Positions 35,901-57,959 of a stretch of 64,000 nt of DNA are shown here, piece by piece. Location: contig JAGIQG010000009.1 in the NCBI GenBank assembly GCA_024679065.1, positions 107,446,001 to 107,510,000 on the forward strand, given 5' to 3'. Below the pieces are notes generated by a model. The model was not told where the DNA came from. It saw nothing but the letters and a program-made list of their open reading frames with translations, and ran no database searches. The position numbers and the translations under genes are program-made. The DNA comes from Sphyrna mokarran (lineage: Eukaryota). Numbering within the stretch: the stretch's first letter is position 1; each line of letters opens with the position of its first letter.

Positions 35901-38900
35901 ATTGAGGTAATGTAAAGTGGCAATACGACATCCTTGATCCTATCCTCAAAGCCTTTTGCAATGAAGGCCAACATGCCATTTGGCTTCCTAACCCGTTGCT
36001 GTACCTGCATGCTTGCTTTCAGTGAGTGGTGTAGTAGTCACCCAAGTCTCTTCGTGCATCAACGTTTGCCAATCTCTCATCTTTTAAATAATATTCTGTC
36101 ACTCTGTTTCTTCTTCTGAAATGAACAACTTCACATTTTCGCACGTAATAGTGCATTGGCCATACGTTTTCCAATTCACACAACTTGATTAATTCACCAC
36201 AAAGCCTCCTGAACATTCTCGTCACTACTCAACTTCCCACTACCCTTCTCTTCATCAACAAGTTATTGAAAAAAATGCATCCATTCCATTGATACATTGT
36301 GAATAGTTAGGGCCCATGTGTTGCTTCTATGAGACTAGCTACTGCCTGCTACTTCGAAAAAGACCCATTTATTCCTATTTTCTGTTTCCTTTCTGCTGAC
36401 AAATTGTCAACAATCCCGTTCCCCCCCAATCCAATATGTTTCAATTTTGTACACTGATACTCCTTGTGGGAATTTACTGGAAACCTTCAGAAAGTCCAAA
36501 TAGAATCATCCACTGGTTAAAACTTACCTATTCTACTAGTAATGTCCTCAGAATTTTTAGCTGAATTTTAAAATATAATTTCCTTTTCATAAATCCATAT
36601 TGACTTTGTCTAACCCCTTTTATATTCTCCAGCAGTTCTGTTATCTCCAGCATTTTCCCTGCTTCTTACCTTAAAGTAGCGTGTCTATTTTCTCCCACGC
36701 TCATTTTTTAAATAACAATGATACATGTAAGACTCTTCAATCTGCCAGGACCGTCCAGAATCTGCAGAATTTTGGTGATGACAACAAACACATGCATCAT
36801 TTCCATAGCCAGCACCTTTGTTATCCTAGCATGTAGATTATCTGGTTCTAAAGTTTTTTTTTGGTTTTCTGCCCTTTAATTGGTCTAACACTAATTTTCT
36901 GTTATTGCCATTTCCCTTAAATTCCTCCTTCTCACTACAATCTAGATGCTTCAGCATTTCTAGAAGTTTATTGTGTCTTCCCCCAGGAGATAAGAAAAAT
37001 GTACTTATTTGACTGCTCTGCTGTTTTTTTGTTCTCTACTATAAGTTCTACTCTTTCTGACTGTAAGGGACCTACATTTGTCTTCATTATTCTTCTTCAT
37101 TTTATATGCTTGCAGAAGTTTGAGTGACCACTTTTATGCTGTTTGTAGGTTTACTTTCATATTTTATTCCTCCTTAATCAAACTTGTGGACTTCTTTGCT
37201 GAATATTGATTTTTTTTCCTAATCCTCCAGCTTGCTACTTTTACTAGCAGAATTACAGGACTGCTGCTTGGATCTAACATTATCCTTAGCGGTGGCATAT
37301 TTTGGCCACTTTCCTTGTTTTCTTTTTACACCAGAAAGAAATATACAATGGGCGCAATGGATACCTTATTTCCTTAAGCATTAGCCAATGCCTAGCCACC
37401 ATCATGTTTTTAATGAAATTCCATAATCTATGGTAGCCAATTCATAGGAACGATAGAAATCATAGAATCCCTACAGTGCAGAAGGAAGCCATTCAGCCCA
37501 TTGAGTTTGCATAGGCCACAATTACACGCAGCCCCTATCCGTGTAGCTCCACTTATTTAGCCTGCCAGTCCTTCTGAAAGTGAAAGTCAGTTTAGCATGA
37601 CCAATGAAGCTAACCTGCACAATTTTCCATCTTAATGAAGAATTCTGTTATGTTACCGATACTGTTCTCTAAATGACCATACAAAAGAAAATGATTAATT
37701 AATCCATTGTCACTGTATAATTATAAATCTATGATAACAGGTTTCTTCGCTGCTTCCTAGTTGGACATACTGGTTAAAAAATACTCGTACGCACTCCAGG
37801 AATTCATAAGCCAAATTATTGTTATAATTTGCTTTGCCCAATCAATGCATTGATTATTTTACATTCATCCATGTGGTGTAGGCTTCCATCTCATTGCGCT
37901 TCTCTAATTGCCCTTCAATAGTGTAGCTTGCTGAATCATCTAGAATCATAGAATCCTACAGAAGGAGGCCATTCGGGCCATCCCGTCTGCACCGACCATA
38001 ATGCAACCCAGGCCCTCTCCCTTTAACCCATGCATTTGCCCTAGCTAGGCTCCCTGAGGCTAACGGGACATTTCCCACGGTCAATCCACCTAACTGGCAT
38101 GGGAGGACTATCGCAGGAAACCAAAGCACTCAAAGGAAACTCATGCAGACACTGAGAGAATGTGCAAACTCCACACAGACAGTGACCTAAGTTCGGAATC
38201 GAATCCGTGTCTCTGCGCTGAGAGGCAGCAGTGCCAATCACTATGTCACAGTCCTTTTAACAATTTTATACATTTTCTGTCCGCATATCGCATGGAATTA
38301 GAGAATGGAGTTCAGAAATCAATCAGCCATGATCAAATGGCAGCACAGATTCGAATGGTCAAATCCGCTCCTATGCCTTATGATAATGTGGCCGTCTACC
38401 TCAGATGTTGTAGGACCGCAATGGTCAACGTCGACAGTGAGGCCGAAAACCATGAAGGAACTTGAATACAAGAATGAAGCTTTCAAAATCCTCATCAAAG
38501 ACGGTCAATCAAATTTAATAACAATAGAATGAATGGTGAATGCGATTGTGACCAAATTAAGTTAGGAAACGAAATCTATTGGTAATGAATGCATAGCCGA
38601 AGATTTTCGCAGCACGGAGCCGAAGGTCGAATTAGAGCGTGAGATATAAGGCATGAGATATAATCTTCATAATAGTACGAAAGGATGGTCAGGAAACGAA
38701 TATGAGGTACAACAAGGCACACAAGTTGGGAAATGTCTGACTCAGTTTGAGAGAATTATCCCCAATTGAGAAAGTGGACCTGAAAGTGAGTTTGTGATGA
38801 AGACAGAAAGCGATGGCATCAACCTTTCAAATGTTCCATTGTCGAAAATATCTTGTCATCCAATTCCAGTAATTAGAAACAATTCGTTTGCATATATAAG

Positions 38901-41900
38901 GGGCGATGACATGCTGTTCGCACCCCACACACCACCTGGATGGAAAGATGACTGGCTTCACGGCGAACAACCCAACAGCCATAATGCATTGAAGGGCTCT
39001 TTAGTCAGGGCTGAGTATGCTACCCGTTCATCATTGTACCGGATACATTCAATTGCATTGGCCCTGAGCTCCATCAGTCCCGACAACGCCAGAAAGGCGT
39101 GAATCGCAGCTACCTTGATTTCAGATAGGCACCCAAACCCCAGTGCCTTCGGAGAAAGTAATTCCAAGGTCTTGGCCCAAAAGGGTTTGGTGGTGCTCGG
39201 GACAGGAGGTGCGTTGTGGGTTGTGGGGGGAGGGGGTGAGTGTGGGGATGTTGTTGAGTAGGTTGAATTTCAGAGGACGAGCGGGTAGGAAGTATATGGG
39301 TGCAATTGCAATCTGGAGGTCATCCCAGTATTTACCTTTAGTCCATTTCAGGATAAAAACCGGACTTTCGCTTCCTGCTCTTCCGCCCACGCCAAAAGCA
39401 CTTTGTCCAGAAACAAAGGTCAGGCAGTCTCACATGCAATTTGCACATTTAACTCTATACCCCATACTAATATAGAAACAACTTCAAAATAAATGTTTTA
39501 ATGAAGTGCAAGTTAAACAAATAATTAATATAAAACTGGATAAATGAGCGTTAATCTTCCTGGGTTCAAAATGAACATGTTCCTCATGACTATTATCTCA
39601 GAATTACAGTGTGGATATTGTGGGAATAATTAGTTTGATCGGTTATTGAAAAGAATAAATGTAAAGAAAGGCAGATGATAGCATATAGGAACGTACCTTT
39701 AACAATTACCCGTGTGCCCCTTCCAGTTTCTTTGCCAATTAAGAACAAAACGACTTCACAATAATACATCCCGGAATCATTCCGATTTGCCTCCATGACT
39801 GTAATTTGGCTGACTTTTAAAGATAGTTCAACTTTCTCCAAAATTCGGCCTTCAGATTTGTTCGAAACCAAATTCTCTTTTCGACCTGATACCTCCTTGT
39901 ACCAATGGAATGCAAAAACTGATGTCTTATTTGACTCAATAAATGTACAGGATATTTGAAATTTCCCTCCTTCTGTTGCTTCGATAATCTCTGGGCTTTG
40001 AATTACTTTGACGTCGGCAATAGCAGCAGCTGTAAAACAGAAATTCCAGTTATACTTGTTAGACAAACCTGCTCCTCTCCTCAAACAACTGTCTTGGCAC
40101 CTTGTCAATAATTCATTTGCGGCTCATAGCAAATTCAAACAACGAATCCCCACTTACATCCCTTGACCTTCAACAGGAAGATGAACATTGAATTTTCTAC
40201 CATGAATCATTTTAGTGTGAACAATTCTTTCTTCCCCTGCAACCTTTAAGCCTAAGCAATTTCATGGGATCAATATCACATCCAAATTCGCGTCTGAGTA
40301 TGTACATACTAGATATTGTCCATCTCTTTGATGTCTATTGAATCAGCCTGAGACTGTTAAAGGCTAATACAAGTACAGTACTGCGATTTCTGGAAATCTG
40401 ACATAAAAGCACAAATGCTGAATAAACTCAGCCGATCTGGCAGCATCTTTGGATAGGGAAGCAGGAGATAACGTTACAACTCCAACGACGCCTCCTACAA
40501 TGGACTAGAAACGCCAACTGTGTCGATTACCACAGATGCGGCCAAAACTTCTCATTTTATCCAGAGTTTTCTGTTTTTATTTGTGTTACAGGCCAATGTT
40601 AAAGGCCCTGTTCACAGATATCTTCCGCCACTTCTCTAGTCATTTGAAGTGGTGTTGAAGATGTTAGGAACAGCACCAGCAACACTGAACGTCAGGTGCC
40701 AAGCTGGTGTCGATACAGCATATGCAAGCTAAACGATAGAACAGCGTGTTATGAATACTGATCTATCCAAAACTAACGGATCACATACAGCCCCTGCAGA
40801 GTTGCCCCAACTACTCGTGAATGGTTGTGGGTTATTAAATTATTAATAGGAGGAGGAAGAGGTCCCCCATCCTCAATAACGGGGAATTTGGCGCATCAGT
40901 GCGAAAGAAAGGACAGAAGCTTTTGTAACCATCTTTAATCGGGCAGCACGGTAGGACAGGGTTAGCATTGCTGTTTCACAGCGCTAGGACCCCCGGGTTG
41001 GATCCCTGGTTTGGGACACTCTCTGTCTGGTGTCTGCACATTCTCCCCGCATCTGCGTGGGCTTCTCCGGGGGCTCTGGTTTTCTCCCGTGGTCTGAAAG
41101 GCTTGTTAGAATTATTGACCTGAACAGTTGCCGGACAGTGCCGACTAGTGGAATTTCACAGTAACTTCATTGCAGTGTTAATGTACATGTGACTAACAAA
41201 TAAATAAACTTCAATGAGCTGTTGAGAGCGGATGATCCATCCCGGCTTGTTTCTCACGTTCACGAAATCAGAGATTTTGCTTCAAATTACTCGATTCACT
41301 TCACATAACAAGAAGTTGATGAAAGCCTGCGTATGGCACAAGATGTGGGACCTAATCACATTCAGACAGCATTTCTGTTGGTTTGTGTTCCAGAACTGAT
41401 CATTCTACAAGAACACGGGAACCGTGAGCGGGAGTAGGCCGCTCGACTTCTTTAACCTTCTCCATCATTCAATAATATCATGGCTAATCTAAGTGTGAAC
41501 AGCACGTTACTGTCTGTCCATCGTATCCCGTGACTCACTCGGTGATCAACAGTGTGTCAAAATGAGCCTCAAACACGACAATGACACATATTCTGGACGG
41601 TAGAATTTCTCAGATAAAAGTGGTGGTGCGAGGACAGCTCTCGGATGTTGATTCATGGGTTGCCTGGTACTTCATGTCGTAAATGAGTGCTTTATCTGGA
41701 CCATCTGAAGGGCACCATGACAGCTCAGTGACTATCGCTGTAGCTGTGCAGACACTTGGAATTGGGCCGGTGTCTGCGGGAGTTTGCGCGTTCTCCCCGT
41801 GGTTGCGTGGGTTTTCTCCGGGCGCTCCGGTTTCCTCCCACATCCCAAAAATTCGCTCTTAAGCTGATTGAAAAACAAATTGTCCCTATATTGAGATTCT

Positions 41901-42483
41901 TCCATATTAGAAATAACCTAAAATTAAAATAGGAAATGGAATTGTCACTATAAAGTTATGACGGCGGCGCGGGCTCGTTGGGCCGAAGGGCCTGTTTCCC
42001 GTGCTGTGTTGCTCTTTGAAAAGGCCCCTTGAGAGAAAATAATGTTCCCCTAACTCAGAATCGTAGAATCCCAATAGTGCAGAGAAGACTATTTGGCCAT
42101 CCAGTCTACACGGACTGTCTGCAGAGCATTTTACCCTGTTCTCCGCCCCATTCCTGTAAACCCTCACATTTCCCTTGACTAATTCATTCTTAAAAGAAAA
42201 GAGCATCAGGCGCCCGGTAAATGCCCTTTATTTCCCCACCTTTGTTTGAACACATACACCCATTGTGCTGCTTTGAAACCCTGGAACACCTTTCTAGCAA
42301 CACACTGGGCATTCCTATACTACAAAGAACCGCAGCAGCTTAAGACACCAGTCCACCAACATCTTCTCAAGGACAATTGGTATACAATAAATGATGGCCC
42401 TTTTGGTGAAGGGCCATTAACAAGAAATGTAACTAAGTTTAAGACTTACCAGAAATTAGCAGTATACCTATAACTGGACACAT
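26688..42483 (-). CDS. Gene B: NKp30/NCR3-like V(J)-domain receptor, inhibitory type (3 ITIMs); join(42450-42483,39697-40029,34535-34684,32736-32767,26688-26939), ~266 aa
   Basis: Exons total 801 nt in one open frame, all GT-AG: MCPVIGILLISAAAIA|DVKVIQSP...YYCEVVLFLIGKETGRGTRVIVK-GQVESKEE...LIAILIFLSRNKCQSNSYMSNR-DRRPTTRNDAQ-GDTSNNVIYADL...VVYAVV...VVYGVVRAPMIRQ*. Confidence 0.82.
27045..27755 (+). mobile_element. Solo LTR, paralog of 1735-2450
   Basis: Collinear similarity at the same intronic position in gene B; TSD decayed. Confidence 0.65.
29340..29499 (-). pseudogene. U1 snRNA pseudogene (near full length)
   Basis: The reverse complement ATACCTACTTGACGGGG...GATCA...CCATTGCACTTCGG.TGTGCTGA...CCCCAAATGCGGGA...CGACTGCAAAATTTCTGGTAGTGGGGATTGCGTT is collinear with vertebrate U1; the 5' splice-site-pairing end is mutated. 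Confidence 0.88.
29510..30045 (-). mobile_element. Degraded CR1 3' fragment (inverted copy at 4078-4600)
   Basis: Residual RT C-terminus (MIPRLNGFSYKFRLE) and a CR1-type 3' UTR. Confidence 0.65.
31116..32103. repeat. ~190-bp inverted duplication (31116-31309 vs 31913-32103) overlapping an LTR-like element
   Basis: For example AGTGCCTTTAAGAAATGTATTTCAATCA vs TGATTGAAATACATTTCTTAAAGGCACA, and CTCCTTCCTGCTCATGA vs TCATGAGCAGGAAGGAG. Confidence 0.8.
32736..32767 (-). CDS. Gene B 32-nt cytoplasmic exon (DRRPTTRNDAQ)
   Basis: TTTTACAG acceptor and CAG|GTAAGA donor; paralog of 4864-4895. Confidence 0.78.
34535..34684 (-). CDS. Gene B stalk/uncharged TM exon
   Basis: CCCCAG acceptor and G|GTGAGT donor (weaker alternative A|GTAATT at 34559); hydrophobic LITLSSALVVTILLLLIAILIFL. 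Confidence 0.83.
35360..37440 (-). mobile_element. Old degraded CR1-type LINE (partial paralogs ~7440-8380 and ~51120-51440)
   Basis: Broken ORFs such as NGMLAFIAKGFE...PHLQYCVQF and KCEVVHF are typical of CR1 RT. Confidence 0.75.
39697..40029 (-). CDS. Gene B Ig V-set (VJ) exon
   Basis: 333 nt (9-nt in-frame deletion relative to paralogs); open frame and canonical V motifs. Confidence 0.9.
42450..42483 (-). CDS. Gene B leader exon (MCPVIGILLIS)
   Basis: 34 coding nt, G|GTAAGT donor, paralogous to 16860-16893. Confidence 0.85.
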
Positions 42484-44735
42484 CTTTCAATTTTGCCTGT
42501 GAATACAATAAGAAAGACAGGAGTTGCAACGACAATTTTTATTTGCATTCAGTTTTGCAGCTACAATTAAACGTTTTTTTTATACATGACAATGCATGCC
42601 TTTGCTCAACGCTTTATCTCCAATTTGGTCGTTCATTTGTTTAGAAATTTAATTTTGTATTTATGGAGGAGAAATTTTGCGACGTTCCCGTTTTCGTCTG
42701 CCTTAGATTAGAGCAAAAGCTGCACAAACACAGGCAGGAAATGGAGACACACCAGGAGGGGTACAATCAAACACGAGCAAGATGGACCCAATGGTTCGCT
42801 TTCTAATCATAACTTGTACATATTTAGATAAGAATCTGCCATTTCTCGGATTTCCATTACATTTAGGATGATGAAAAGAGAACGCAAACTTAACTTTATG
42901 ACAGATATGTTTTTCATTATCAGATTGTCTACCTGAGAGCTCAGTAGTATGAGGATGAATAGTTTGAACCTAGACTTAGTGAAGAATGAGAGGCGATGTT
43001 TTTGAACGTGTACGATAGGAGGCAGCATTTATTGGCCACAAAACGGGAGGATGTTTTCGCTTCCCGGAGAAACTTGTAGAAAACGCCACCGTATTGGGAT
43101 AAGGTGATGTTTGAGACGGAGATAATGAACATCGCATTTCCCTCCACACCCCGTCCAAAGTATCCTTAGTGTATGAATTTCGCTTGTCAAAAACACAGTG
43201 GAGGCTGAGTCGTTGAATTCAATTAAGGTAGAGTTAGGAGGTTGTAGATAGATTAGGGAGTCAAGGGCTGTGGGGGAAGGGCGGCAATGTGGAATTGCGA
43301 TCCCTAAAAAAAATTGTACACCATCTTACTGAATGTAAGCAGGTTGAAAAGGCTGAATAGTGCATTTTTGCTCTTGGATTTTATCATAGAATCCCTACAG
43401 AGGAGAAGGAGGCCCATTCAACACACTCTGATTCTCTCACAGAGCATCCTACCAAGGGACTCTCCACCGTCCTTTCTCCGTAACTCCACGCATTTCCCTT
43501 GGCTAATCCGCCTAAACTGCATATCTTTGGATTGTGGGAGGAATCCGGAGCACCCAAAGGAAACTTGTTCAGAGACACGCCCACTTCACTCAGTCACCCA
43601 AAGCAGGATTTGAACCCTGGTTCCTAGCGCTGTGAGGCAGAATTGAACCTAGGTTCCTAGCGCTGTGAAGCGGCAGTGCAAACCACTGTGCTAACTGTGT
43701 TCTTATGCTTAGTTAACTATACGAACATTTCATAAAGAACGATGTTTTCAACGTCCAAATCTAGAGTCTGAACAACAGAAATTCTTCCCCTTGTTATTCT
43801 TCCAATAACTTTCTTAGAAGTCCTTGCATTCACCTGAAAGGGCAGAAACGACCTCGATTTAGACACATAGCTAAAAAGAGGGACTCTTCTTGATGTGGAC
43901 ATCGCTGGCTAGGCCAGCATTTATTAGCTTTCCCTAACTATCCTCAATTTCAGGGGACGTTTGAGAATGAAGCGCATTGCTGTTGAGTCTGGAGTGACAT
44001 GTCGGCCGGACCGGGTAAGGATGGCAGATTTCCTTTCCTAAAGGGCAATAGTGACCTACATGGGTTTTAGCAACAATCGATTATGGTTTCACGATCAACA
44101 TTGGAGCTTGAATTCCAAATTAGTGAATTCAAGTTTCACCACCTAGCGTGGGGGGATCTGAACTTGGGTACAGATATCGTCCTCAGTTACGAGTGGAGTG
44201 ACAATTACCATTACGCCACTGCCTCCGCTATCCCCGACACACGCTCCTGCTTTTGAGTATTTGTCTTGAATTTTGTAATCTATTTTATACTTTTAGCACC
44301 TGCAGTATTTTGCTTTAATTTTAATGCTCTGGTAACGTAATAACAGTTTATATTCAATAAATTAATTCGAACAATCCGGAATCTAATGGTTTTTACAGTG
44401 ATGATGACCATGAATCTGTCATCGTATTGTCGTTAAAATCTATCTAGTTTACTAATGTCCGTTAGGGAAGGAAATCAACATTTTTACACATTCTTATCTA
44501 CATGTTGGTCGAAACCCTTCGAGTTTTGCTTAGCTCTTAAGTTCCCTTTGAGACGGCCTCGTGAGTCTCTCACTCCAACGGAAATTATCGACGGGCAACA
44601 AATGTCTGCCTTACCTTCCATTTCTCTCTATCTAAAACGCGAAGTTAACGATAAGAACAGTAAAAACAAACATACAGTTAAATTTTGAACATGATTTTGC
44701 TTTACTAAGAAGCAGAACGATAAAAATCTACTTAC

Positions 44736-44834
44736 TTTAATTAGGAAGAGAAATGTGCAGCCAACTTCTGCAATTATTTTTCGCCTGTACTGTAAAAGAA
44801 TTATTTATAGAAAAAATACGGGAAGCATGACGTC
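44736..44834 (-). promoter_or_regulatory. Putative promoter and first exon of gene B
   Basis: Paralog of 20155-20253 with the same donor and ETS/CRE motif. Confidence 0.45.
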
Positions 44835-47800
44835 TTACAACAATTAAGGAGGCGTATCAGCATTTTCTTGAAGGACAAGAAAAGAGAATTGGGAACTGAA
44901 ATTCACGCAAGTGCAGACAGCAATGAGCTATTAACTCCTTATGGAGTATCACTGAACAGAATAGCATGGGATCCGGATTCCATGGAACGATTAAGATTAT
45001 TTCAAGCAATAAATGACACTGACATTGTAGCGGTACATTGGCTATGCTAAATTCTCCAGCAGTATACTCGAACATTGTTGATTTTAACGATAATTTGTTA
45101 AAGTTATGTTGTGGCTAGATACACATGTATCGATCTACTTGACTATGTAAGTACAGTAACGACATAGAATGCCACTCTTATTGACATTTCAGTCTCCAAG
45201 TACATGACAATATACTGTTGCAAGTTTCATTGCTTTGATAGTTGAAGAGGTGACTGAATCCTTGCGGAACGGTCAAAGTAGCCAAATACTGAATTAGAAA
45301 CTACAGTTACCATAAGAAACTGAGATAGTAAAGATTCTTGTTTGTGTTTTATGAAAAACTGTGCTGAAATGGTTTATAAAAATGAGGAGCAGGAGTAAGC
45401 TATTCGGCCCCTTTCAGCTCGCTATATCATTGTATAGAATCATGGCTAATCTGCCTATAGCCTCAGCTCCACATTCCATCTACTACCGTTAACACTGACT
45501 GCTTTGTTAGCATCGATACTGAATTAGGCTTAAGATTAACTCTACCTCCACTGCTTTCCAAAGAAAAGTGTTCCAAAGACTGACGAGCTTCTGAGAGAAT
45601 ACAAAATTTTTTCTTCTCCACCTGGAATGCGAGACCATTTATTTTTAAACTCTATCTCCAATCCTGGTCTCTCCCAGAAGCAAAACCATCCTTTCAGCCT
45701 GAGTTCGGTCAAGTCCCTTCATGCTCTTAATTGTTTCAATAGGGGGACGTTAATATTGCCACATAGCCTTCTGAATTCGAACTTTTACAGAACTGACGCA
45801 GTGGTTAGTAACAGGGACGTGGGTTCAGTTCCAGCCTCGGGTCACCATCGGTGGCGACTTTATACGTTCCACTCCTGTCTGCATCGGGGTTTTCCGGTGC
45901 TCCGATTTCTTCCTACAGTCCAGAGATGTGCGAGTTAGGTGGATTAGCCATGCTAAATTGCTCCTTCATGTCAGGGGATAAGCAAGTCAAATGCTTGGTG
46001 TTAGCGGGATAGGGCCTGGGTGGGATAGTTATCGCCGCAGGCTCGATGGTCGAATGGCCTCCTCTGCACAGCAGAGAATCTATGATTCTATGAATAGCGT
46101 TCTATTATCCCACGCTCACGCTCCACAGCACTTTCTTCTGCTTTCGATAGAAGATTAGATTTAGACATACGGAAAGTCCCCTTCACTCGAACTCAACTGT
46201 CCATAAATACTGCAGAATCTCAAAACAATTATTTTGCAAATATATAAGAATTTTTATCGGGAATTCAATGCAGAGTAATTCCCATTAAAAAAGACAGTCT
46301 TTGTCTGTAATGTAGTTGTAATAGTGCACGCAGAAAAGCTTCACTCAACAGATCTGGTGCCATTTCCTACTGCTTCAACAAGTTGCTTAAAGGAAAATTG
46401 AATTAAATCGTGAGGACAAAATGAATCACCATTTTGTGTTGTCGGTCATGTGTTTTCTAATAAGTCATTGCCTCATAAAAACGTGCAGAAAGATAGCACA
46501 GAAGTCGAGTGAAGTGGGTGGAGATTGCAATTCAAACGTACTTGGTTTATTCAGATAGCATTAATAAAAGTGGATGAAAACAATTGTATATCTTCCTGCG
46601 TCTTTCCCGACCATTACGACCAAATGTCATCACCACCAACGACGTCTGCATATCTTATATTGCATGTTTGAGAAAAAGAAGCAGCAATACTGGGTTCACT
46701 TTGATGATTGGTGCTTTCAGGGCAAAATGCAGTGCTGGATGCATGTTGGAATTCTAGGCCGAAGCGTAGATTGCTAAATTAGGATTATCTTCAAAGTAAT
46801 TGAATGCGGCAACATACAATCGTGTTTCCTGCTCACTGAGGTCCCTTTTCCCCGCATGGAGACAAGATTCATAGTGTGCATTCACTTCAGCAGCCAAAAT
46901 GAAGAAGTTTAGTTACACCTCCCAAACAGAGAGGGCAGCCGAGAAGACAGCTATTTAATGGGCTACACTCAGTAGAATTGAACTGGAAAAGACAGACTTT
47001 TTATAACAGCTACTTCAAGGTTCACAAGACCCATCATAAGATGTGATGGACAGCATGAATGAAGGTTCACGAAGTCACAGGTCTGGTATATTTTTAAAAA
47101 ATGAATCTTACTCAAGAAATAATATCAGCACAATGATCTGATATTTATACCAGCTGCTCATACAACATGGCAACATTAGATTTGTGTATGATTAGTTTGC
47201 TTTACGTTTACTTTTTTTTGCGTACTACATCAGCAGACATGCACTGATAATAATAGAGTGCTACTAATGTACTTTAAGTCTTCATGGATAAGGCTGACAT
47301 AGAAATGATTTAATAGTAGATGTTTATTAGTAGATCTAATCTGGAAATGATCATCACTCACTTATGTTACAATCCAGATTAGAAACTAAATTTTAAGAAG
47401 TCAGCCGAGATCATTGAAGCTTGGCACAGGAAAGATATTTTACTCCAGATTTGATTAACGTGACCCACTAGGGAGTTTTTTTTATCAAAGTTTATTTAAC
47501 AATATGGTTAACATATGGAAGGAAAATTAGCAATTAAAATTACAAATCAAAAAAACCATGATATTGTATAAACATTAACAGCTACGAAAATTGTTCCAAT
47601 ACAACATTCTTACAAAAATACACACGCGGTGTAGGTTTAGCACAGAAAATGCATATGCTCATGTGATGCTGGATCTTGCATCTTTCACAACAATAGAAGG
47701 TTGCACTACAGACTTCACAGTGCCTGAAGCTTTGTTGTGGATTATGGATTGTGGATTTGCAAAATAAAAACTACAGGCTTGCTTTCAAACTGCAGAGAAC

Positions 47801-47997
47801 ATGATTAAAAACATACTTCTTAAAGGCACAGCAGTATGACATGTACCATCGGACTGTTGTCAGATATGGCTAACTCTTATGTGGCTGCAGGTCCACCAAA
47901 ACAGTAACCCACTTTTATTTTATGTAAGGTCTCCTGATTAACTTGAATGGAGAACTGTAAATTCACCAGTGAAAGACAGATTCCAGGAAAATATAGG

Positions 47998-48230
47998 GCA
48001 TAGATAGATAGGCAGTCGGACAGATTGGCAGGCAGACAGATAGATGGACAGACAGGCAGAGAAACAAATAGATAGATAGATGGATAGATCAATGAATTGA
48101 GAGATAGACAGGCTGGCAGGCAGACAGACTGACAGACAGACGGATGGATGGATAGATAGATAGATAGATAGGTAGATAGATAGATAGATAGATAGATAGA
48201 AACGCAGACAGATAGATAAATAGATAGATG
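47998..48230. repeat. Compound (GATA/GACA/GATG)n microsatellite
   Basis: Seen directly; much shorter in the paralog at ~23350-23400. Confidence 0.95.
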
Positions 48231-50261
48231 ATTGGCTTATTGAATAAACATTCTGGCACTGTTTCCGATGTATGGTGAAGAAAAAATGAATTAACCATAA
48301 TCCACAACAAAGCTTCAGACAAACATCACAAAGCCTGTCTAAGATAATAAAAGTTACCAATAGTGACGTGCAAACATCCTTACTTTATCGAATAGAAGAA
48401 AAGGTTCATCTGAACTATGTGTTTTATTTTAAAGTCCACAGTTCCTACATTGCCAGATTGAATTCATTCAGGTTTCATTCTTTGATTGTAATGAAAGAGT
48501 CTGTGACAATAATCGGTCATTTCCCTTTAAACGGATCTACTTTAAAAAGATATATGTGGCAATATTCGTTACAATTAGAATTTTACATATGGTCCAGTTA
48601 CAATCAGTTTTATATTGTTTAGTTTTGATTTAAGCTAGATTTTTTCTCTGGTGCATATGCGTTACCAGATCTTTAGAATCATAGAAACCCTCCAGCATTC
48701 TGCCCATCTGCATCGACTCTCTGAAAGAGCATCTCACCATGGCCCAATCCCCATAAACCTGAGTATTTGCCAATCCATCCACGTAACATCCACATCTATG
48801 CACACTGCGTGGTAATTTAGCATGACCAATCAACCTAACCTCTACATTTTTGGACTGTGGGGCGATAGCGTGCAAACTCCAGACTGTCACCCAAATTCGG
48901 ATGGCCAGCGTGCCACCGTGCTACCATGTCAGCATGTCTTTGATAAGTCAAAATGACAAGAGGTAGGGAGTGACAAGCTCAATTATTACGAGGTGATGAT
49001 CCCGTATCGAATCGCATCATGAAACATGGTGGCAATACATAAAAGGTTAGCTACAAAATACCATTTGCGTCAAAGGTGTTGTCAAATCTCATTGTTGGTT
49101 AATGATAGAAGGGCCCCTGTTGTTCATAGCCTAAGTCGAATCTCATGTAAGTTTCCTTCACTTGCAGGGTGAGCGTGCAAAGTGGAGTAAATTCAATGAT
49201 CAACAGCAAAGTTAACAACAAATACTTAGAGAAAAGGACAAGAAAAGTCGAAAATAAATTCATGTTTCATTCTCTGCGATGACGAGTCATGCTTTGTTAA
49301 GTTAGAATTCTCCTTGCTTTTCCCAGTAAACTGAATAATCATCAAATAAGCATCCCCCCTTCCTGTATTGCAGGCTAACATCGGAATTTGAACTATAGAG
49401 CTGCATACGTTATATATTTCATAGCACATATTTACATTTAATGATAATGAAGGAGAAAATATAACAATTGTTCGCTAATAATGAGTGTTAGATCGTACAC
49501 TTATGCTTTTATGTGTTTTTTGTTCTTATATGATTGACATTATCTGACTCTTGTCATCTTTTCCTGTCTTCGATGGGGGAAAAATACGACATGGTGTAAG
49601 AGCGTTTACAAGTATCAATGTCAATTTTTTTTCTCTGCAATTAGGAGATAAAATTACTTAAAGTGGAACCTGGGACATATGAAATTGTCAATGACTGCGC
49701 CATCTAATGGACTTTGTACAATAACGCAGAATACAATGTTTTATTAGTAAACCATTTAAAGATATAAAGGGTTGGGGGGGGGCAGCGGGAGAGCTAATGA
49801 AGGGCATATGATCGTACCCGAACACACGTGATATTGGCATACATGCTTCTTTCCGTTTGCATTTAACACCTAGAGCCTTGGGCAGCATAGTGGCCCAGTA
49901 GTTAGCACTGCTACCTCACACAGCCAGGGACCCGAGTTTGATTCCTGGCTCGGGTCACTGTCTGTATGGAGCTTTCACGTGCTCCCCGTGTCTGCGTGGG
50001 CTTCCTCTGGGTGTTCCAGTTTCCTGTGACAGAATGAAAGACGTGCTGGTCTGGGGCATTGGCCATGCTAAATTTTCCCAGAATGTACCCGACCAGGCAC
50101 TGGAGAATGGCGACCTATGGATTTTCACAGTGACTTCAGTGTAATGGTGATCCTACTTGAGGCGCTAATAACTAAACTAAAAAAAAAACACTTCTGCAGT
50201 CACTTTATAATCAACTGCAAATACAATTTGTCCAAAATGTCAATCGGTTTAGTTTAACTTT

Positions 50262-50455
50262 TTACCATGAGATGCTGCCAGCTGTGGTACCTTCTTCACG
50301 CTCTGCAGCGAGAAGCTTCGGAGAACCTCGAAACTCGCAGCAATATACGAGAGATATCGTTATTATGATTAACGCAGCAAACACTGCAAGCCTCACTCCC
50401 ATCGCAATCAGCTGCCTTTGCAGCGAATATCTCGTGTTATCCGGTTGCTCCCATC
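50262..50455 (-). CDS. Gene C stalk/TM(Arg)/short tail exon
   Basis: TTCTCTACAG acceptor, phase 1 matching the V donor, hydrophobic helix with one Arg, TAA at 50262-50264, minus-strand AATAAA at 49740-49745. Confidence 0.8.
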
Positions 50456-53400
50456 CTGTAGAGAACGAACAGTCAAATACAGTAATTGCTTTAATCTATT
50501 CACTCGGTCAACTTATCGAAATAGTTAGGATTTTTTTCCCAATTTCTTGTGTACTAGTGCCCCGCAGGTTGTTCATTGCGTATTGTATCCAAAGTTGGAT
50601 GCCTTGGAAAAGCAGCCAGCATAATTAAGGACCCCAGACACTCCGAACATATTCTCTTCCATCTTCTACCGTTGGAAGAAAGATTTTAAAAACACCACCT
50701 GTAGCAGAGTCAAAAATTCCCTGTTGCTATTGGACTTTTGATCGGAAACAGAAAATGCTGGAAAGTTTCAGCAGGCCCTTTGTTTTGATTCTGGTTATTC
50801 ATTCAACAGAGCTGAAAGGAGAGCAATGAAAATCAGACGTATACTATAAGTTGGGGGGAAGTGGGCTTTAGTTGGACAACGGAAATGTAAATGATGATGC
50901 CGAAGGAAGAGAAAGGTACTAAAAGTGTCCGTTAAGGGGATTGGAATGTGTGAATAGCAGAAAAGAATTGAAGAGATCTCCCAGTCTGCGTTTGGTGCCT
51001 TTGATGTACTTTCTGAGCTAGTCGACATTGGAGGGACCAAACAATGACTGGGTGACGGCTTTGTAGAACATTTTTGGATCATCTGCAAGCAGGACCCAGA
51101 CCTTCTTGTCGCTTTGAGTCTTAGCTTTTATCACATGTTTTTATATGATTGCAGAAGCTTTGAGTGATCATTTTTGCTATCTGCAGGTTTACTTTCATAC
51201 TCTATTCCCCCTTAATCAAACTTTTGGACTTCTTTGCTAAATATTGAAATTTTCCTAATCCCCTAGATTGCTACTTTTCCTAGCAAAATTATAGGAGTCC
51301 TGTTTAGATCTAATATTATCCTGAGTGGTGGCATATTTGGGCCACTTTTCTTGTTTTGTTTTTGCACCAGAAAGAGATATATAATGGCTGCAATGCATAT
51401 CTTATTTTCTTAAGTATTAGCTACTGCCCAGCTACCATCATAGGAACGATAGAAACCATAGAATCCATGTAGCGCAGAAGGAACCCATTGGACCAATTCA
51501 GTTTGCACAAATCACAATTACATCAGCCCCTATCTGCGTAGCCCCTCTTATTTAGCATGGTAGTCTCCCTGAAACTGAAAGTCAATTTAGCATGGCCAAT
51601 CAACCAAGCCCACACATCTTTCCATCTTAATGAAGAATTCTGTCATGTTACTGACACTGTTCCCTAAATGATTACGCACAAGAAAGTGATTAACTAACCC
51701 ATTGTCAGTGTATAAGTATAAATCTATGATGAAATGTTTCCTCGTTGCTTCATAGTTGAACATATTGGTTAACAAAAAAACACGCACATATATATCACAA
51801 TATTGTTGTTAATTTGCTTTGCCCAATCAATGGGTAGAGTATTTTACATTCATCCATGTGGTGTAGGCTTCTATCTCATTACCTTTCTCTAAACGCCCTT
51901 CTACAGTGTAGCCTGCTTAGCCATCTAGAATTATAGAATCCTTCAGATTGAGGTTATTCGGCCCATCCAGTCTGCACTGACCATAATCCCATCCAGACCC
52001 TCTCCTCATAAATTTACCCTAGCTAGTCGCTCTGATGCTAAAGGGAAATTTACCACGGCTTATCCATCTAATCTGTTTGGGACGACTATGACAGGAAACC
52101 GGAGCACTCGGGGGAAACCCGTGCTGACACGGGGAGAATGTGCAAACACCACACAGTCAGTGACCCAAGCTGAGAATCGAACTTAGCTGTGGCGAACAGT
52201 GCTAATTACTGTGCCATCGTCTCTTTAGACATGTCTTTCTTGCATTTTTGTACAATTTATGTATCTCTACCTAATGGACTTATAGAATGGAGTTCAGGAG
52301 CCAATCAGCATTGATGAGACTCGATGGGTCGAATGGCTTATTTCTGCTCCTAGATCTTATGGTAATGTGGCCCTCTATCTCAGATGCTGCAGGGCTGCAA
52401 TGATCAACATCGATACGAAGGCAGTAAACCATGGAGGAATTTGAAATCTCATCAAGAGCCATCAATTAAATTTAGGAAGAATACAAATGAACGGTGAATG
52501 GGTTGTGAGCAAGTTAAGTTAGGAAACGAAATGTATAGGTAACGAATGCATGGACGAAGATTTTCGCAGCACGGAGCCTAAGGTAGAGTTAGGGTGTGGG
52601 ACATAAAGCAGATAGACGTGCACAATCTTCCTGATCGTACGAAAGGATGGTCAGAATCAAATATGGGGTCGAATGAAATACCAAGTTGGGAAATGTCTGA
52701 CTCAGTTTGAGAGAATTACTCGCAATTGAGACAGTGGACATGAAGGTGAGTTTGTGATGGGGACAGAAAACGATGGCATCAACCTTCCCAATGTTTGTTG
52801 CCGAAAATGTCTGGTCTCCCAATTTCAGTAATTAGAAACAATTCGCTTGAATAATACACGGGGCGATGACATGCTTCTTCCAGCCCACGCATCACCTGGC
52901 TGGAATGACGATTATCTCCATGCCAACCATCCCAACAGCCCATAACGCACTGCAGGGGCTGTCAGCCAGGGCTACGCTTTCATCATCGTACCCAATGCAT
53001 CCAATTGTATTGGCCCTGAGCTACATCAATCTCGAGAAAGCCAGGAAGGCGTGAATCACAGCTACCTGGTCTGCAGGTAGGCACACAAACCCCAGTGCCT
53101 TCGGAGAAAGAAATTCCAGAGTCTCGGTCCAAATAGGTTTGGTAGTATTGCGGACAGGGAGTACTGTGGGAAGAGAGCACGATTTGGGGGATATGGGGGC
53201 GAGGGGTACGTTAATTTCAGAGAAGGAACAGGCAGGAAGGAGTTGGGCTCAATATTCAATTTAGGTGGCAGGCCCTGTATTCGCGTTTAGTCAATTTCAG
53301 GGTTAAAAAAGACTTTTGGTTCCACATTTTTGCCCACGCCAAACGCATTATGTCCAGATACAAAAATCAGACAGTCTCACATTTAACACTATGCCCCAGG

Positions 53401-54776
53401 CTAATATAGAAATAACTTTGAATTATATGCTTTAATGGTGTACAAGTTAAACAAATAATTAATATAGAAATGGATAAATGAGCGTTAATCTTGATGGATT
53501 CAAAATGAACACTTTCCTCGTGACTTCTTTCTCAGAACTATATAGTGAATATTTTAGGAATAATTAGTTTGATCTGTTATTGAAAAGAAAAAGTTTAAAG
53601 AAAGGCAGATGGTAGCATATAGAAACGTACCTTTAACAGTTACCCGTGTGCCCCTTCCAGTTCCTTTGCCAATTAAGAACAAAACGACTTCACAATAATA
53701 CATCCCGGAATCATTCCGATTTGCCTCCATGATTGTAATTTGGCTGTATTTTAAAGATGGTTCACGTTTCTCCAAAACTCGGCCTACAAATCTTTCAGAT
53801 TTGTTCAAAAACAAATTCTCTTTCCGACCTGATACCTCCTTGTACCAGTAGAATACAAAAACTGATATCTTGTTTGACGCAGTAAATGTACAGGAGATTT
53901 GAAATTTCCCTCCTTCTGTTGCTTCGATAATCTCTGGGCTTTGAATTACTTTGACGTCGGCAATAGCAGCAGCTGTAATACAGAAATTCCAGTTATACTT
54001 GTTAGACAAACCTGCTCCTCTCCTCAAACTATTGTCCTGGCACCTTGCCAATAATTCATCTGCAAATTCATTCAAAGAATCCCTACGACCATCCCTTGAT
54101 CTTCAGTAGGAAGATGACCACTGAATTTTCAATTTGAACCATTTTGGTGTGAACAATTCCTTCTTCCCCTGCAGCCTTTAACCCCGAGCAATTTTCTGAG
54201 ACTGTTAAAAGGCAATACAAGTACAATACTGCGATTTCTGGAAATCCGACATTAAAACACAAATGCTGAATAAAAATCCGGCAGCGTCTCTGGAGAGGGA
54301 AACAGGAGTTAACGTTACCAGGAGTCCAACGACGTCTCCGACAATGGACTGGAAACGATAGATGTATCGATAACCACAGATGTGGCTAGATCTGCTCACT
54401 TTAGCCAGAGTCTTCTGTTTTTATTTGTGTTAACAGCCAATGTTAAACTCCTCCGGGCACTTCTCTAATCGTTTCATAAGAAGTGGTATTGCACACGTTA
54501 CGAGCAGCACCAGGCAACACTAAGTATCAAGTGACGACCTGGTGTCGATACAAACATGCAAACTAAACGATAAAAGCAACATGTTATCAATACTGATCTA
54601 TCCAAAACTAACAGATCACATCTAACCTCTGCACAGTTGCCCCAACAACTTCTCAAGGACAATTAGTATGTTGTCCTTTTTGGTGAAGTCCACTTCCCAT
54701 TAATAAATGTAACAAGAAATACAACTAAGTTTCAAGACTTACCAGAAATTAGCAATATACTCATAACTGGATACAT
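50262..54776 (-). CDS. NCR3: Gene C: NKp30/NCR3-like activating-type receptor (TM arginine, short tail without ITIM); join(54743-54776,53631-53972,50262-50455), ~189 aa
   Basis: 570 nt open frame: MYPVMSILLISAAAIA|DVKVIQSP...YYCEVVLFLIGKGTGRGTRVTVK-GWEQPDNTRYSLQRQLIAMGVRLAVFAALIIITISLVYCCEFRGSPKLLAAEREEGTTAGSISW*. The single VJ domain, short stalk, N-terminal TM Arg and short tail match mammalian NKp30 architecture. The symbol denotes family, not proven orthology. Confidence 0.78.
50740..51115 (+). mobile_element. Penelope-like element fragment (GIY-YIG remnant)
   Basis: 51021-51113 translates as VDIGGTKQ*LGDGFVEHFWIICKQDPDLLVA, similar to the YIGETKRRLGDRFAEHL region of PLE endonucleases; partial paralog ~25300-25530. 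Confidence 0.6.
53631..53972 (-). CDS. Gene C Ig V-set (VJ) exon
   Basis: 342 nt, open frame, DSGMYYC...GKGTGRGTRVTV. Confidence 0.9.
54743..54776 (-). CDS. Gene C leader exon (MYPVMSILLIS)
   Basis: 34 coding nt, G|GTAAGT donor, paralogous to the other leaders. Confidence 0.85.
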
Positions 54777-57700
54777 GTTTCAATTTTGCCTGTGAATATA
54801 ATAAGGGAAACAGGGTTATAACGACAATTTATATTTGCATTCATTTTTGCAGCTATAATTGCAAGTTCCTTACACATGACAATGCACGCTTTTGCTCAAC
54901 CCTTTATCTCCAATTTGGTCGTTCATTTATTTACAAATTTAGTTTTGCATTTATGGAGGAGAAAGTTTGTGACGTTCCCGTTCTCGTCCGCCTTAGATTA
55001 GAGCAACATCTGTACAAACCTAGGCAGGAAATGGAGACATTCCAGGATGGGCACAATCAAACATGAGTTGGATGGGTCCAACGGTTCGTTTCCGAATCAT
55101 AATTTGTACATACTTAGACGAGAATCTGCCACTTCTAGAGTTTTCATCACAATTGAAAATAGAACTCACATTTAATTTTATATAACATATATTTTTCATG
55201 GTATTGATTAACAGGTTGACGACCTGAAAACTCAGTAGTATAAGGATGGACAGTTTGAGCCTTTACTTAATGGAAAATGAGAACTGATCTTCTTAACGCA
55301 TACGATCATAAGGCAGCATAATACGCCACAAAACGAAAAGATGTTTTCACTTCTGAAAGAAACTAGTACTAAAGGACACAGTTTCAGGATAAGGTGATGT
55401 TTGAGAAGGAAATAATGAGCATCGCATCCCCTTCCACACCCCGAGCAAAATGTTTTTAGTATATGAAATTCTCTTGCTAAAATATAGTGAGGGCTGAGTC
55501 GTTGAATTCAATCAAGACCGAGTTAGAGACATTTGGATAGATAATCGAGTCAAAGGCTATGGGGAGAGGGCGGCAATATGGAGTTGAGACCCTTTCAAGA
55601 TTCGACATGATCTTATTGAATGGTGGAGCAGTTTCGAATAGCTGAATAGTATATTTTTGCTCCTGAATCTTATCATGGAATCCCTGCAGAGGAGAAGGAA
55701 GCCCAATCAGCATACACCGATTCTCTCACAAGGTATTCAAATAAGGAACTCTCCTTCGCCCTATCCCATAACAACACACATTTACCAGGGCACATCTTTG
55801 CACTGTCGCAGGAACCCGGAGCACTCAGAGGAAACTGACATGCACGCTCCACTCAGACAGTCACCCAAGGCTGGAATTGAACCCGGCTTCCTAGCGCTGT
55901 GAGGCAGCAGTGCAAATCACTGTGCCACTGTGCTAAAAGCGTTATTGTGCTTAGTTAACTGCTCGAACATTTCACACACAACGGTGTTTTCAACATCCAA
56001 ATCTAGAGTCAGGACTGCAGAAATTGTTCCCTTTGTTACTCTTCCCATAACGTTCTTAGAATTCTTTACATTCACCTGAAAGAACAGAAACGTCCTCGAT
56101 TTAGCCGCATATATAAAAAAGACACTTTTCTGAGGTGAACATCGCTGCTTGAGCCAGCATTTACTGCCCTTCCCTAGCTTCCCTCAATTTCAGGGGACAC
56201 TTGAGAGTCAACTACATTGTTTTGGGTCTGGAGTGACTTATAGGCCAGCCCGCGTAAGGATGACGGATTCCCTTCCCTAAAGGACATTAGTGAGCCAGAC
56301 GGATTTTGCCGACAATCGATAATGGTTTCACGAAAACATTTGAGTTTGAAATCCAGATTAGTGAATTCAAGTTTCACCATCTAGCGATCTGAACCCGGGC
56401 ACACAGATATCGTCCTGAGTTACGAGTCAAATGTCAATAGCACTACACCACTGCCTCCCCTACCCCCGCCATGCGTTCCTACCTGAGAGTATTTTGTGAC
56501 CAAGTGGGACTTCAACCCATCAACTTCTGATTAAACGGCGAGACCTTTCGAAATCGTAACTTGTGGCGAATTGCGATTCCAGTAACTTCAGTAGGCCCGA
56601 CTATTCGGCATGTGCTACATAAGTGGACTTATGTAATTCTGTGTGTTCCTGTCCCAGATTGACGTTTATTTCCTTCTTGTAGTTTCAAGTCCAAGGGTGC
56701 ATTAGAGAGGCTTGGTGAGATGCACTTGGAACCCGGAACTCTTGTAAGACATGTTTTAACAGAAGTCTAAAAGAGACTCACCAACGCTGGAAAGGCGGAA
56801 GTGTTTCAGACGGGGAATTTGAAGACAGACAAAAGCAACAGCAACTGTGTTCTCATGCTGGGTGGGGGGCGAAGTGTGGTGAAAATTAGAGACAAAGAAT
56901 TGATGAAATGACCACTTAGAGCTAAAGGATGACTCTTGGGTTAAGGGCAGACTTAGAAATAGGGTGACGAATTTCTGATTCGAGTTATTGGTGAGCCAAG
57001 GTGCAGTTAAATTCAACACATAACGGAACCCGAACTGTCTCTATCAAAACTCTCTCTGTTTGTGTGTATGTCGTGTATACGTATATTCATTTTGGGATGT
57101 GGGTGACTCCGGAAAGACCACCATTTCTTACCCACTCCTAAGTGCCTTTGGAAGGGTGGTTGGACGAATCTACTCGTATACGGATAAGAATTTAGCGTTA
57201 GCTTATAACAGAAATTAACAGTGTATAAAGTGAAAGCACGAACAGTAGAAACACATCAAATAAGGAAGTGGCTTAGTATAAAGACTAGAGGAGCATTTCG
57301 GAGAAAGCGGCTAATGCTCTGAAGAGGAGGCTCACTGACTCGATAAGTTAACTGTATTTTTCTTTCTCCACAGATGATGGCAGACTCGCTGAGTTTTTTT
57401 TTCTGCACTTCTTATTTCTATTTTATATTTTTAGCACCCGCAGCACTTTGCTTCAATTTTAATGTTCTGGAGGCATAGTTACAGCTTAAATTCATAAACT
57501 AATTCAAACAATCCGGAATATAATGTTTTTTTCAGTGATGATGACCATGAATCTATTGTCGTATTGTCGTTAAAATCCATTTACTTTACTAATGTCCATT
57601 AGGGAAAGAAATCCACCATCTTTACTCGTTCATATCTACATGTTGGTAGAAACCCTTCGAGTTTTGCTCGACTCTTAAGTTCCCTTTAAGATGGCCTCGT

Positions 57701-57861
57701 GAGTCTCCCACGCCAATGGAAATTTGGGTAACAAATGTGAGCCTTACTTTCCATTTCTCTCTATTTAAAATCGAAGTTATCGAACAGTAAAAAGGTATGC
57801 AGTTAAATTGTGAACATGACTTCTGCTTTACTAAGAAACAGGACGATAAAAATCTACTTAC

Positions 57862-57959
57862 GTTAACTTGACAGAGAAATTTACTGTCGACTTCTGCAAT
57901 TATCTTTCACATGTACTATTTAAAAAAGTTTCTGGAACAAATACGGGAAGTATGACGTC
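57862..57959 (-). promoter_or_regulatory. Putative promoter and first exon of gene C
   Basis: Paralog of 20155-20253 with the same donor and ETS/CRE motif. Confidence 0.45.

Follow-up and report, generated by a model that had tools for sequence, protein, structure and literature searches.

Introduction

Homogenisation restricted to the ligand-binding exons of paired receptors with opposing function, termed merohomogenization, has been described for KLRC, KLRI, KLRB, Ly49 and PIR (PMC3210942). The Discussion of that article considers a contribution of gene conversion as well as of recombination probable, and could not separate the two in those pairs. The exon-homogenising process itself is already well known. 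It is apparently unreported for shark NCR3-like genes, and a literature search listed no prior report of such exchange for shark or NCR3 genes. Human NKp30 is a single activating gene.

The DNA analysed here, a window of 64,000 nt from Sphyrna mokarran, contains a tandem array of NCR3/NKp30-like receptor genes. The V exons of two of these genes, B and C, descend from an ancestor far younger than that of the surrounding DNA, likely as the result of non-allelic exchange in the form of gene conversion. All comparisons rest on one haplotype, and outgroups were compared at the residue level.

Gene organisation and predicted signalling types

Genes B and C are arranged in tandem in the same direction, at a distance of about 14 kb. 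Gene A, a single paralog in the preliminary description, has two V exons, one open (A2) and one with a stop (A1), and four V copies (A1, A2, B and C) were therefore compared.

42450-42483, minus strand: gene B, leader exon
39697-40029, minus strand: gene B, V(J) exon, 333 nt, AG/GT-bounded, phase 1/1
34559-34684, minus strand: gene B, transmembrane (TM) exon, uncharged
32736-32767, minus strand: gene B, short cytoplasmic exon
26688-26939, minus strand: gene B, tail exon with three ITIM-like motifs
54743-54776, minus strand: gene C, leader exon
53631-53972, minus strand: gene C, V(J) exon, 342 nt, AG/GT-bounded, phase 1/1
50262-50455, minus strand: gene C, exon for TM and short tail, Arg within the hydrophobic segment, without ITIM
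51139-58886: gene C, promoter-leader-V-intron block, corresponding to 37100-45687 of gene B, about 79-84% identity outside the V exon
13683-14024, minus strand: gene A, V exon A2, open, comparison copy, with leader at 16860-16893
10667-11008, minus strand: gene A, V exon A1, comparison copy, in-frame TAA at codon 69
1387-6806, minus strand: gene A, TM exon (6678-6806), cytoplasmic exon (4864-4895) and ITIM tail (1387-1629), used as synonymous-rate control
24820-25005, minus strand: frameshifted copy of an activating-type TM exon, leader-V block missing

The predicted ORF of gene B is open and encodes 258 aa. With its three ITIM-like motifs and uncharged TM segment, gene B would be of the inhibitory type, and gene C, with Arg in the TM segment and no ITIM, of the activating type. 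A basic TM residue for adaptor coupling is found in C only; A, like B, lacks it and carries three ITIM-like motifs. In agreement with the preliminary description, the TM, cytoplasmic and tail region is common to A and B (about 80-81% DNA identity), whereas the TM exon of gene C has no significant DNA similarity to that of gene B (best blastn E 0.33). It aligns with the Lys-bearing TM segments of nurse-shark NCR3 (P0036) and S. torazame P0014. The predicted signalling types predate the V-exon exchange: both TM types are present in catsharks, and an activating-V clade of C with S. torazame P0014 was rejected (AU p 3.5e-4). A single further activating member of this subfamily came to light; a search with the gene C TM exon added no activating homologue among 49 candidates, which is weak evidence. 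The promoter-leader-V-intron block common to B and C is an older and longer homology than the exon tract described below.

In both genes a single germline-joined VJ exon, matching Pfam V-set, is followed directly by the TM exon. Human NCR3 was the best single-domain match in a family profile search (76 bits), Foldseek placed NKp30 at ranks 1-3 with a small margin over VNAR, and NKp30 was the best match for the V fold of gene C. The nearest named shark proteins carry an NCR3-like annotation. None of the ten mappable human B7-H6 contact residues, taken from PMC3135353 Table II, was identical in B or C, and the genes were for this reason filed as NCR3-like and not as a B7-H6-binding NKp30 orthologue. 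No marker gene for MHC linkage was identified within the window.

Comparison of the V exons

Over 333 aligned nucleotides, the V exons of B and C show 20 substitutions (94.0% identity), comprising four synonymous and 16 replacement changes (NG86; pS 0.052, pN 0.063, omega about 1.2). These values reproduce the preliminary estimates of about 20 substitutions in 333 nt and about four synonymous changes, which left unmentioned an in-frame 9-nt deletion of codons 60-62 in B, near 39850. The codons are deleted in B only; C, A1, A2 and each of the 12 rows of the V alignment from outside the window keep them. Because the motif is present in every other row, its deletion may have cost B the ability to bind as C does. 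B was said to be much closer to C than to A, and its identity was indeed only 83.5% to A1 and 79.0% to A2. Eighteen of the 20 differences between B and C fall within exon nt 77-240, and identical runs of 82, 69 and 50 nt are located at the exon ends. The replacement to synonymous ratio of 16:4 equals the neutral expectation, and positive selection was not read from it. At positions equivalent to NKp30 contacts, B and C agree in nine of ten cases, no more than their overall identity of 87% predicts; an enrichment of identity at ligand-contact positions was rejected.

Exon-limited switch of phylogenetic signal

The decisive evidence is a phylogenetic signal that switches inside the exon. Informative sites supporting BC|A1A2, A1B|A2C and A1C|A2B were distributed 21:1:0 in the V exon and 32:30:28 in the far downstream intron (1966 columns; Fisher p 8e-8), in support of the exon-limited conversion that had been proposed. 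The 21 B+C sites form an unbroken run (permutation p 1e-5), and 11 of them lie in the divergent middle of the exon. The ML tree of the exon joined B and C with a bootstrap of 100 and alternatives were rejected (AU p 3.5e-4), whereas the whole downstream intron gave A1+B as ML tree with no topology rejected; the introns did not group B with C. Neither of the two outcomes that the preliminary description had set as refuting, a V-exon dS as high as intron divergence or introns joining B and C at equal depth, was obtained. The far downstream intron alone showed a weak preference for B+C (bootstrap 63, AU not significant), and the 368 exon-adjoining intron columns, a window chosen post hoc, favoured A1+B (bootstrap 95; AU p 0.04 for B+C). 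A three-copy test (BC:AB:AC) gave 54:4:10 for the exon, 194:211:168 downstream, 33:62:42 for the leader-V intron and 272:296:256 upstream, so that neither flank places B closer to C than to A. B-C belongs to the more distant pairs of the downstream intron (0.212 vs 0.182 for A1-B).

The adjacent intron had been described as about 85% identical between B and C. This holds for 300 nt at the donor (84.7%), but not for the bulk of the intron (79-82%, depending on the aligner). Over the 61 nt before the V acceptor identity reaches 95%. Since all six V pairs are just as conserved here (0.05-0.10), as is the stretch before the A-B TM exon (0.05), these approximately 60 nt were not accepted as proof of a tract extending into the intron. 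The scans delimited the homogenised tract as follows.

39692-40077: gene B, outer estimate of the tract, GENECONV-like scan, global p 2e-4
39692-40007 in gene B and 53626-53950 in gene C: tract from a segment scan, p 5e-4

Informative sites within the outer estimate in B extend from 39742 to 40007; the equivalent tract in C begins at about 53626. The homogenised tract coincides almost exactly with the V exon. In simulations without conversion but with rate heterogeneity, the observed excess was reached in one of 80,000 runs; under strong lineage rate variation, the B-C distance came down to 20 nt in 2-4% of the no-conversion simulations. As a separate observation, one of the three penalty settings gave a weak A1-B segment at 39182-39378 of B, with a global p of 0.012.

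From one haplotype, conversion and a double crossover are indistinguishable. Two crossovers near the exon ends, or successive unequal crossovers replacing the exon, would be in keeping with a direct-orientation array that bears marks of unequal exchange (the second V exon of gene A, the lost leader-V block of the second activating gene) and with the joint contribution of recombination named in PMC3210942. Such a course would, however, need two breakpoints within about 400 bp of an 8-kb homologous block at unchanged copy number, and a single crossover would have brought along one flank, while neither flank groups B with C. We regard crossovers in place of non-reciprocal conversion as improbable.

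Synonymous divergence and derived residues

Low synonymous divergence between B and C had been taken to fit conversion. This stood in comparison with the introns, as B-C pS (4/76 sites) is below the B-C intron divergence of 0.16-0.21 (P 1e-4 to 4e-3), but not in comparison with other exon pairs of the locus (P 0.057-0.15). The other five V pairs had a mean pS of 0.111 (P 0.067). For the TM, cytoplasmic and tail exons compared between A and B it was 0.114 (P 0.057), and the 95% confidence interval of the B-C value (0.014-0.134) includes 0.11. All six V pairs and these A-B exons are below the intron level. Because the other exon pairs are also low, low dS is weak evidence by itself, and we rejected it as the main proof of conversion. 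The four B-C synonymous changes all lie within the central 36 of the 76 synonymous sites (p 0.05, regions chosen post hoc), which was not accepted as proof of a second conversion round.

The slow divergence of exonic synonymous sites relative to introns (pS about 0.11) could also speak for a history without exchange, in which A1 and A2 diversified and B and C either preserved an ancestral V under purifying selection or became alike by convergence on one ligand. Likewise, most of the grouping sites are replacement changes (only 2-3 of 21 are synonymous), and omega of the other V pairs ranges from 1.2 to 2.9. However, the B-C omega of about 1.2 rules out purifying selection as the source of the similarity, and the shared states are mostly derived. 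B and C have 17 residues in common that are found neither in A1 and A2 nor in the Mustelus outgroup, and ten of these are missing from all five catshark rows as well; other V pairs share 0-4 residues in this way. At the nine residues where B equals C and A1 equals A2, Mustelus agrees with A1/A2 six times, with B/C once and with neither twice. Where B and C agree in a residue that A1 and A2 lack, their codons are identical in 20 of 20 cases, including multi-base changes. Derived shared residues and identical codons argue against both ancestral retention and convergence. In the tree, a long stem (0.46-0.49, support 100/100) is common to B and C. A history without exchange is largely refuted and was considered very unlikely.

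An assembly or polishing artefact, by which reads of one paralog corrected the exon of the other, could account for the identical runs at the exon ends. It is scarcely credible for exons that remain distinct at 20 substituted positions and by a 9-nt deletion, with about half of the grouping sites (11/21) in the divergent middle and flanks that are unique at about 80%. The common block of about 8 kb and the weak B+C signal of the far downstream intron might suggest that the entire leader-V-intron block was duplicated later, with B and C as the sister products. This is refuted by the flank comparisons, since outside the exon the block (79-84%) does not exceed the identity to the A copies and the post hoc window of 368 exon-adjoining columns favours A1+B; it is very improbable.

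Otherwise private residues that are shared with B and/or C numbered 11 for A1, the inhibitory neighbour of B's lineage, three for A2 and four for A1+A2 (chi-square p 0.04). Direction of transfer is unproven, because the protein tree does not separate A1, A2 and B+C (AU p 0.23-0.38). A transfer from the inhibitory B lineage as donor to the activating gene C as recipient is suggested, and we lean moderately towards it. The exchange was previously called recent; this applies in a relative sense, in that it is younger than the duplications and has roughly 0.2-0.45 of their age. Since then, 20 substitutions and one deletion have accumulated.

Discussion

Gene conversion between B and C could have been permitted if their 8-kb blocks, at an identity of approximately 80%, paired out of register, either on sister chromatids or on homologues, with the better conserved V exon as the presumed pairing site. 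Essentially the V exon alone was probably copied, from the predicted inhibitory into the predicted activating gene. Selection would have retained the product if the activating receptor thereby gained the binding surface of the inhibitory one, following a decoy or counter-balance logic. Since then, the two copies would have diverged once more in the central part of the domain, and perhaps a second, later and patchy exchange affected the two ends of the exon. By analogy with paired receptors, B and C may have a common ligand and overlapping expression.

Tentatively, the binding exons of tandem activating/inhibitory pairs among shark NCR3-like genes might have been re-matched repeatedly, and independently in each lineage, by inhibitory-to-activating conversion, although we consider this somewhat doubtful. 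The same reading, held with equal reserve, would include successive stages, from the 8-kb promoter-leader-V block to the exon alone and then to the exon ends. If true, the NKp30 family would include pathogen-decoy paired receptors in the oldest lineage of jawed vertebrates, and the repeatedly re-matched shark receptors would chase a fast-evolving ligand other than the canonical B7-H6.

The B/C pair adds cartilaginous fish and the NKp30 family to the mammals and frogs in which exon-limited homogenisation of paired receptors was described before. Together with the diverged controls A1 and A2, it is a concrete set for a ligand hunt. It also cautions against reading orthology of shark NCR3-like genes from their V-domain trees, which misstate it.

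NCR3/NKp30 (human PDB 3NOI, 6YJP and 3PV6) resembles B and C in its single non-rearranged VJ exon and in profile and fold matches, and nurse shark NCR3 (QTT61904.1) has the basic-residue TM type of C. Further shark NCR3-like proteins compared were those of S. canicula (XP_038670994.1) and Mustelus (XP_078075389.1). Unlike NCR3/NKp30, the locus of Sphyrna mokarran is a multigene array with ITIM-tailed members, and its V domains have about 40% identity to the nurse-shark NCR3 row vs 61-69% to the Mustelus ITIM-tailed protein.

In SIGLEC11/16, as in B/C, conversion over the binding-domain exon keeps an inhibitory/activating pair alike (as described in PMC5701461). SIGLEC5/14 is described as another such pair matched by conversion over this exon. 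Siglecs, which are multi-domain sialic-acid lectins, belong to a different family from the single-VJ receptors B and C. The Xenopus genes ceacam301/303 and 350/351/368 share with B/C a tract confined to the V-type exon and its splice sites, and replacement changes that accrue after homogenisation (as reported in PMC5112662). There, however, introns are poorly conserved, synonymous changes are nearly absent and the partners are oppositely oriented, whereas B and C have introns that align at about 80%, keep four synonymous changes and stand in direct tandem. The pairs treated in PMC3210942 have orthologues in two species and partly known ligands, whereas B/C is described from the sequence of one shark haplotype. 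As in B/C, according to that account, only the binding exon is homogenised, the opposite signalling halves stay distinct, and the signalling types predate the homogenisation event.

Gene array and gene models

Long tandem repeats of 74-82% identity filled the 64-kb window in self-comparison. Exon mapping placed three genes on the minus strand, the predicted inhibitory genes A and B and the predicted activating gene C, in the 5'->3' order gene C, gene B, C-type transmembrane (TM) remnant, gene A.

Features of the array (window coordinates)
54743-54776, minus, C leader exon
53631-53972, minus, C V exon
50262-50455, minus, C TM/tail exon
42450-42483, minus, B leader exon
39697-40029, minus, B V exon
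34559-34684, minus, B TM exon
32736-32767, minus, B cytoplasmic exon
26688-26939, minus, B tail exon
24820-25005, minus, C-type (activating) TM exon remnant, frameshifted, leader-V block missing
16860-16893, minus, A leader exon
13683-14024, minus, A2, V exon of gene A
10667-11008, minus, A1, V exon of gene A with in-frame stop at codon 69
6678-6806, minus, A TM exon
4864-4895, minus, A exon between TM and tail
1387-1629, minus, A tail exon

The predicted open reading frames comprise 258 aa (B), 189 aa (C) and, if A1 is skipped, 259 aa (A). A1 and A2 lie in tandem in the same phase, A1 being TM-proximal; a full-length A receptor requires skipping of A1, and its inclusion is predicted to yield a truncated 194-aa product. 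A and B each have an uncharged TM and three ITIM-like motifs, whereas the C TM contains an Arg and C lacks ITIMs; these motifs define the signalling labels of the window genes and outgroup proteins alike, and on their basis the repeat unit would be an activating-plus-inhibitory pair. Since the window ends (1-677 and 63317-64000) are 80% identical, this ~38-kb unit probably runs on beyond both sides. The ~12-kb promoter-leader-V block found upstream of the C-unit TM is absent before the remnant (junction 25530/25974). The leader-A2 intron holds a LINE 3' fragment, presumably of CR1/L2 type (14088-14873), ~60 nt ahead of the acceptor, with an RT-like ORF at 14196-14900 (minus). A GAG acceptor precedes the tail exon in both A and B (1630-1632 and 26940-26942), in agreement with the junction of Mustelus P0001; the last exon base at the B TM donor (34559) is A rather than G, and the A and B tail introns differ by a ~0.5-kb inversion (4080-4596 vs 29504-30045).

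Affiliation with NCR3

The V exons encode a Pfam V-set domain. The closest database proteins were from sharks, Mustelus asterias (63%) and Scyliorhinus canicula 'NCR3-like' (53%), the two that passed among 17 candidates. The Mustelus match points to a carcharhiniform shark as the likely host. Further homologues came from two more searches, in one of which 16 of the 150 matches listed were retrieved; protein names were taken for 8 of 16 retrieved homologues and the 2 initial matches. With a profile of 20 sequences, human NCR3 was the best single-domain PDB match (76 bits). When C was modelled with AlphaFold (pLDDT 86), Foldseek placed NKp30 at ranks 1-3, with a small lead over shark VNAR. The TM segments of nurse-shark NCR3 and S. 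torazame P0014, each carrying a Lys, can be aligned with that of C. Because B and C keep none of the 10 mappable B7-H6 contact residues of human NKp30 (PMC3135353), the genes are termed NCR3-like with no ligand assumed. In all six V-exon pairs of A1, A2, B and C dN exceeded dS (omega 1.2-2.9), which suggests diversifying selection on the family.

Probable exchange limited to the V exon

Over 333 nt the V exons of B and C differ at 20 positions (16 replacement changes and 4 synonymous ones), exactly as counted in the preliminary description; the five remaining V pairs share 79-84% identity. The ~85% identity given there for the adjacent intron holds for the first 300 nt by the donor (84.7%) but not for the intron bulk (79-82%). 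Informative sites among the four copies grouped B with C against A1 and A2 in 21 cases, A1B|A2C in 1 and A1C|A2B in 0, whereas 1966 far-intron columns gave 32:30:28 in the same order (Fisher p 8e-8). A run of 21 BC sites was never met in 100,000 permutations (maximum 18). In the exon tree B+C had bootstrap 100 and both alternatives were rejected (AU p 3.5e-4), and the whole downstream intron was star-like with no topology rejected. The 368 intron columns nearest the exon, a window picked post hoc, favour A1+B. In the intron 3' of V (B 39182-39596 and homologues) A1 groups with B and A2 with C, a hint that the downstream intron of A2 may derive from an activating-type block.

The three-copy test used A2, B and C, which have both flanks in common. 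BC:AB:AC counts were 54:4:10 in the exon, 194:211:168 downstream, 33:62:42 in the leader-V intron and 272:296:256 upstream. Tract scans were run with our own implementations instead of the original programs. The GENECONV-like scan returned B 39692-40077 (global p 2e-4), the segment scan B 39692-40007 / C 53626-53950 (p 5e-4). Both place the tract on the V exon. Upstream, the tract boundary is indistinct, since the acceptor flank is kept in all V pairs: ~60 nt 5' of the acceptor (40030-40090 and homologues) show 90-95% conservation across the four copies and contain no stop in the exon frame, likely reflecting a splice-related constraint as before the TM exon.

Synonymous sites add less. The B-C synonymous difference proportion (pS, NG86) of 0.052 is far under intron divergence (P 1e-4 to 4e-3), and to this extent the earlier low-dS argument stands; it was overstated, since A1-A2, A1-C and A2-C also fall under the introns (P 0.002-0.009) and 4/76 against a baseline of ~0.11 gives P 0.06-0.07. 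Synonymous divergence of the A-B TM, cytoplasmic and tail exons is 0.114, versus 0.15-0.16 in introns. The 21 grouping sites include only 2-3 synonymous ones.

Alternative explanations

Exon-limited exchange of some kind between predicted inhibitory B and predicted activating C is regarded as highly probable, and conversion as its likely form; a double crossover would leave an identical pattern. In simulations without exchange (intron tree, site and lineage rate variation), the most extreme settings gave a raw B-C distance of <=20 nt in at most 4% of runs, but a grouping-site excess as large as that observed occurred in one run of 80,000. Convergence is unlikely because identical codons encode all 20 B+C-specific residues; an assembly artefact behind the match is likewise unlikely. 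Retention of ancestral sequence does not hold up: B and C have 17 residues in common that are found in neither A1, A2 nor Mustelus (other pairs 0-4). Five catshark rows likewise lack 10 of these, and the B+C stem is long with support 100/100 in a tree of 16 rows and in one of 14 rows from which two long branches had been dropped; the rows leave out isoform duplicates and distant matches lacking a name. Purifying selection, already judged a poor fit in the preliminary description, cannot account for the similarity because omega is ~1.2.

History and direction

The C promoter-leader-V-intron block (51139-58886) aligns with B 37100-45687 at ~80%, whereas the TM exons of B and C lack significant similarity at the DNA level, and catsharks possess each of the two TM types; an older, long exchange may thus have shared the block. 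The V exon by itself would then have been exchanged, ~0.2-0.45 of the duplication age ago (wide error), and the two copies would have drifted apart again. Exon nt 77-240 hold 18 of the 20 B-C differences, including all four synonymous ones, nt 1-76 none, and nt 241-342 two, although this part includes the FG loop, strongly variable among other V copies. This distribution departs from the A1-A2 pattern (Fisher p 0.007) and is compatible with two readings, selection acting on the middle part and a subsequent exchange affecting the ends (p 0.05). A 9-nt in-frame deletion in B (~39850; C bases 53785-53793), seen in no other row, is likely younger than the last exchange across that site because C retains those bases. 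It removes three residues just ahead of strand D that all other rows keep, and B may fold or bind differently as a result.

An origin of the C exon from the inhibitory lineage is suggested by the register of A1 with the B TM and tail, by the otherwise private residues common with B and/or C (A1 11, A2 3, A1+A2 4; p 0.04) and by C residues 35, 39 and 41, each a single base from the A1 codon; the ML tree supports neither direction (AU p 0.23-0.38). A clade of C and the S. torazame activating V was rejected (AU p 3.5e-4); the latter shares 63-66% identity with inhibitory Vs from S. torazame and 55% with C. This one gene hints at the same process in that lineage.

Relation to known receptor systems

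Xenopus has MHC-linked NKp30-related genes of both signalling types, so the paired NCR3-like architecture may already have been described. PMC12227049 describes NCR3 as an MHC-linked VJ gene that does not rearrange and gives eight nurse-shark accessions for it, and NKp30 is mentioned in PMC10751288; the portions of the shark NCR3-like literature covered by our search yielded no report of conversion or of ITIM-bearing pairs. The probable B-C exchange adds a further example of an established process, in a shark lineage and a family for which that literature held no earlier report. Homogenisation of opposing receptors limited to the ligand-binding exon is documented for KLRC, Ly49, PIR and others (PMC3210942), SIGLEC11/16 (PMC5701461) and Xenopus CEACAMs (PMC5112662). 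In the last, intrachromosomal conversion was linked to opposite gene orientation, whereas B and C lie in direct tandem. Exchange between misaligned chromatids or homologues would suit this arrangement, and such misalignment fits the deletion and V duplication elsewhere in the array.
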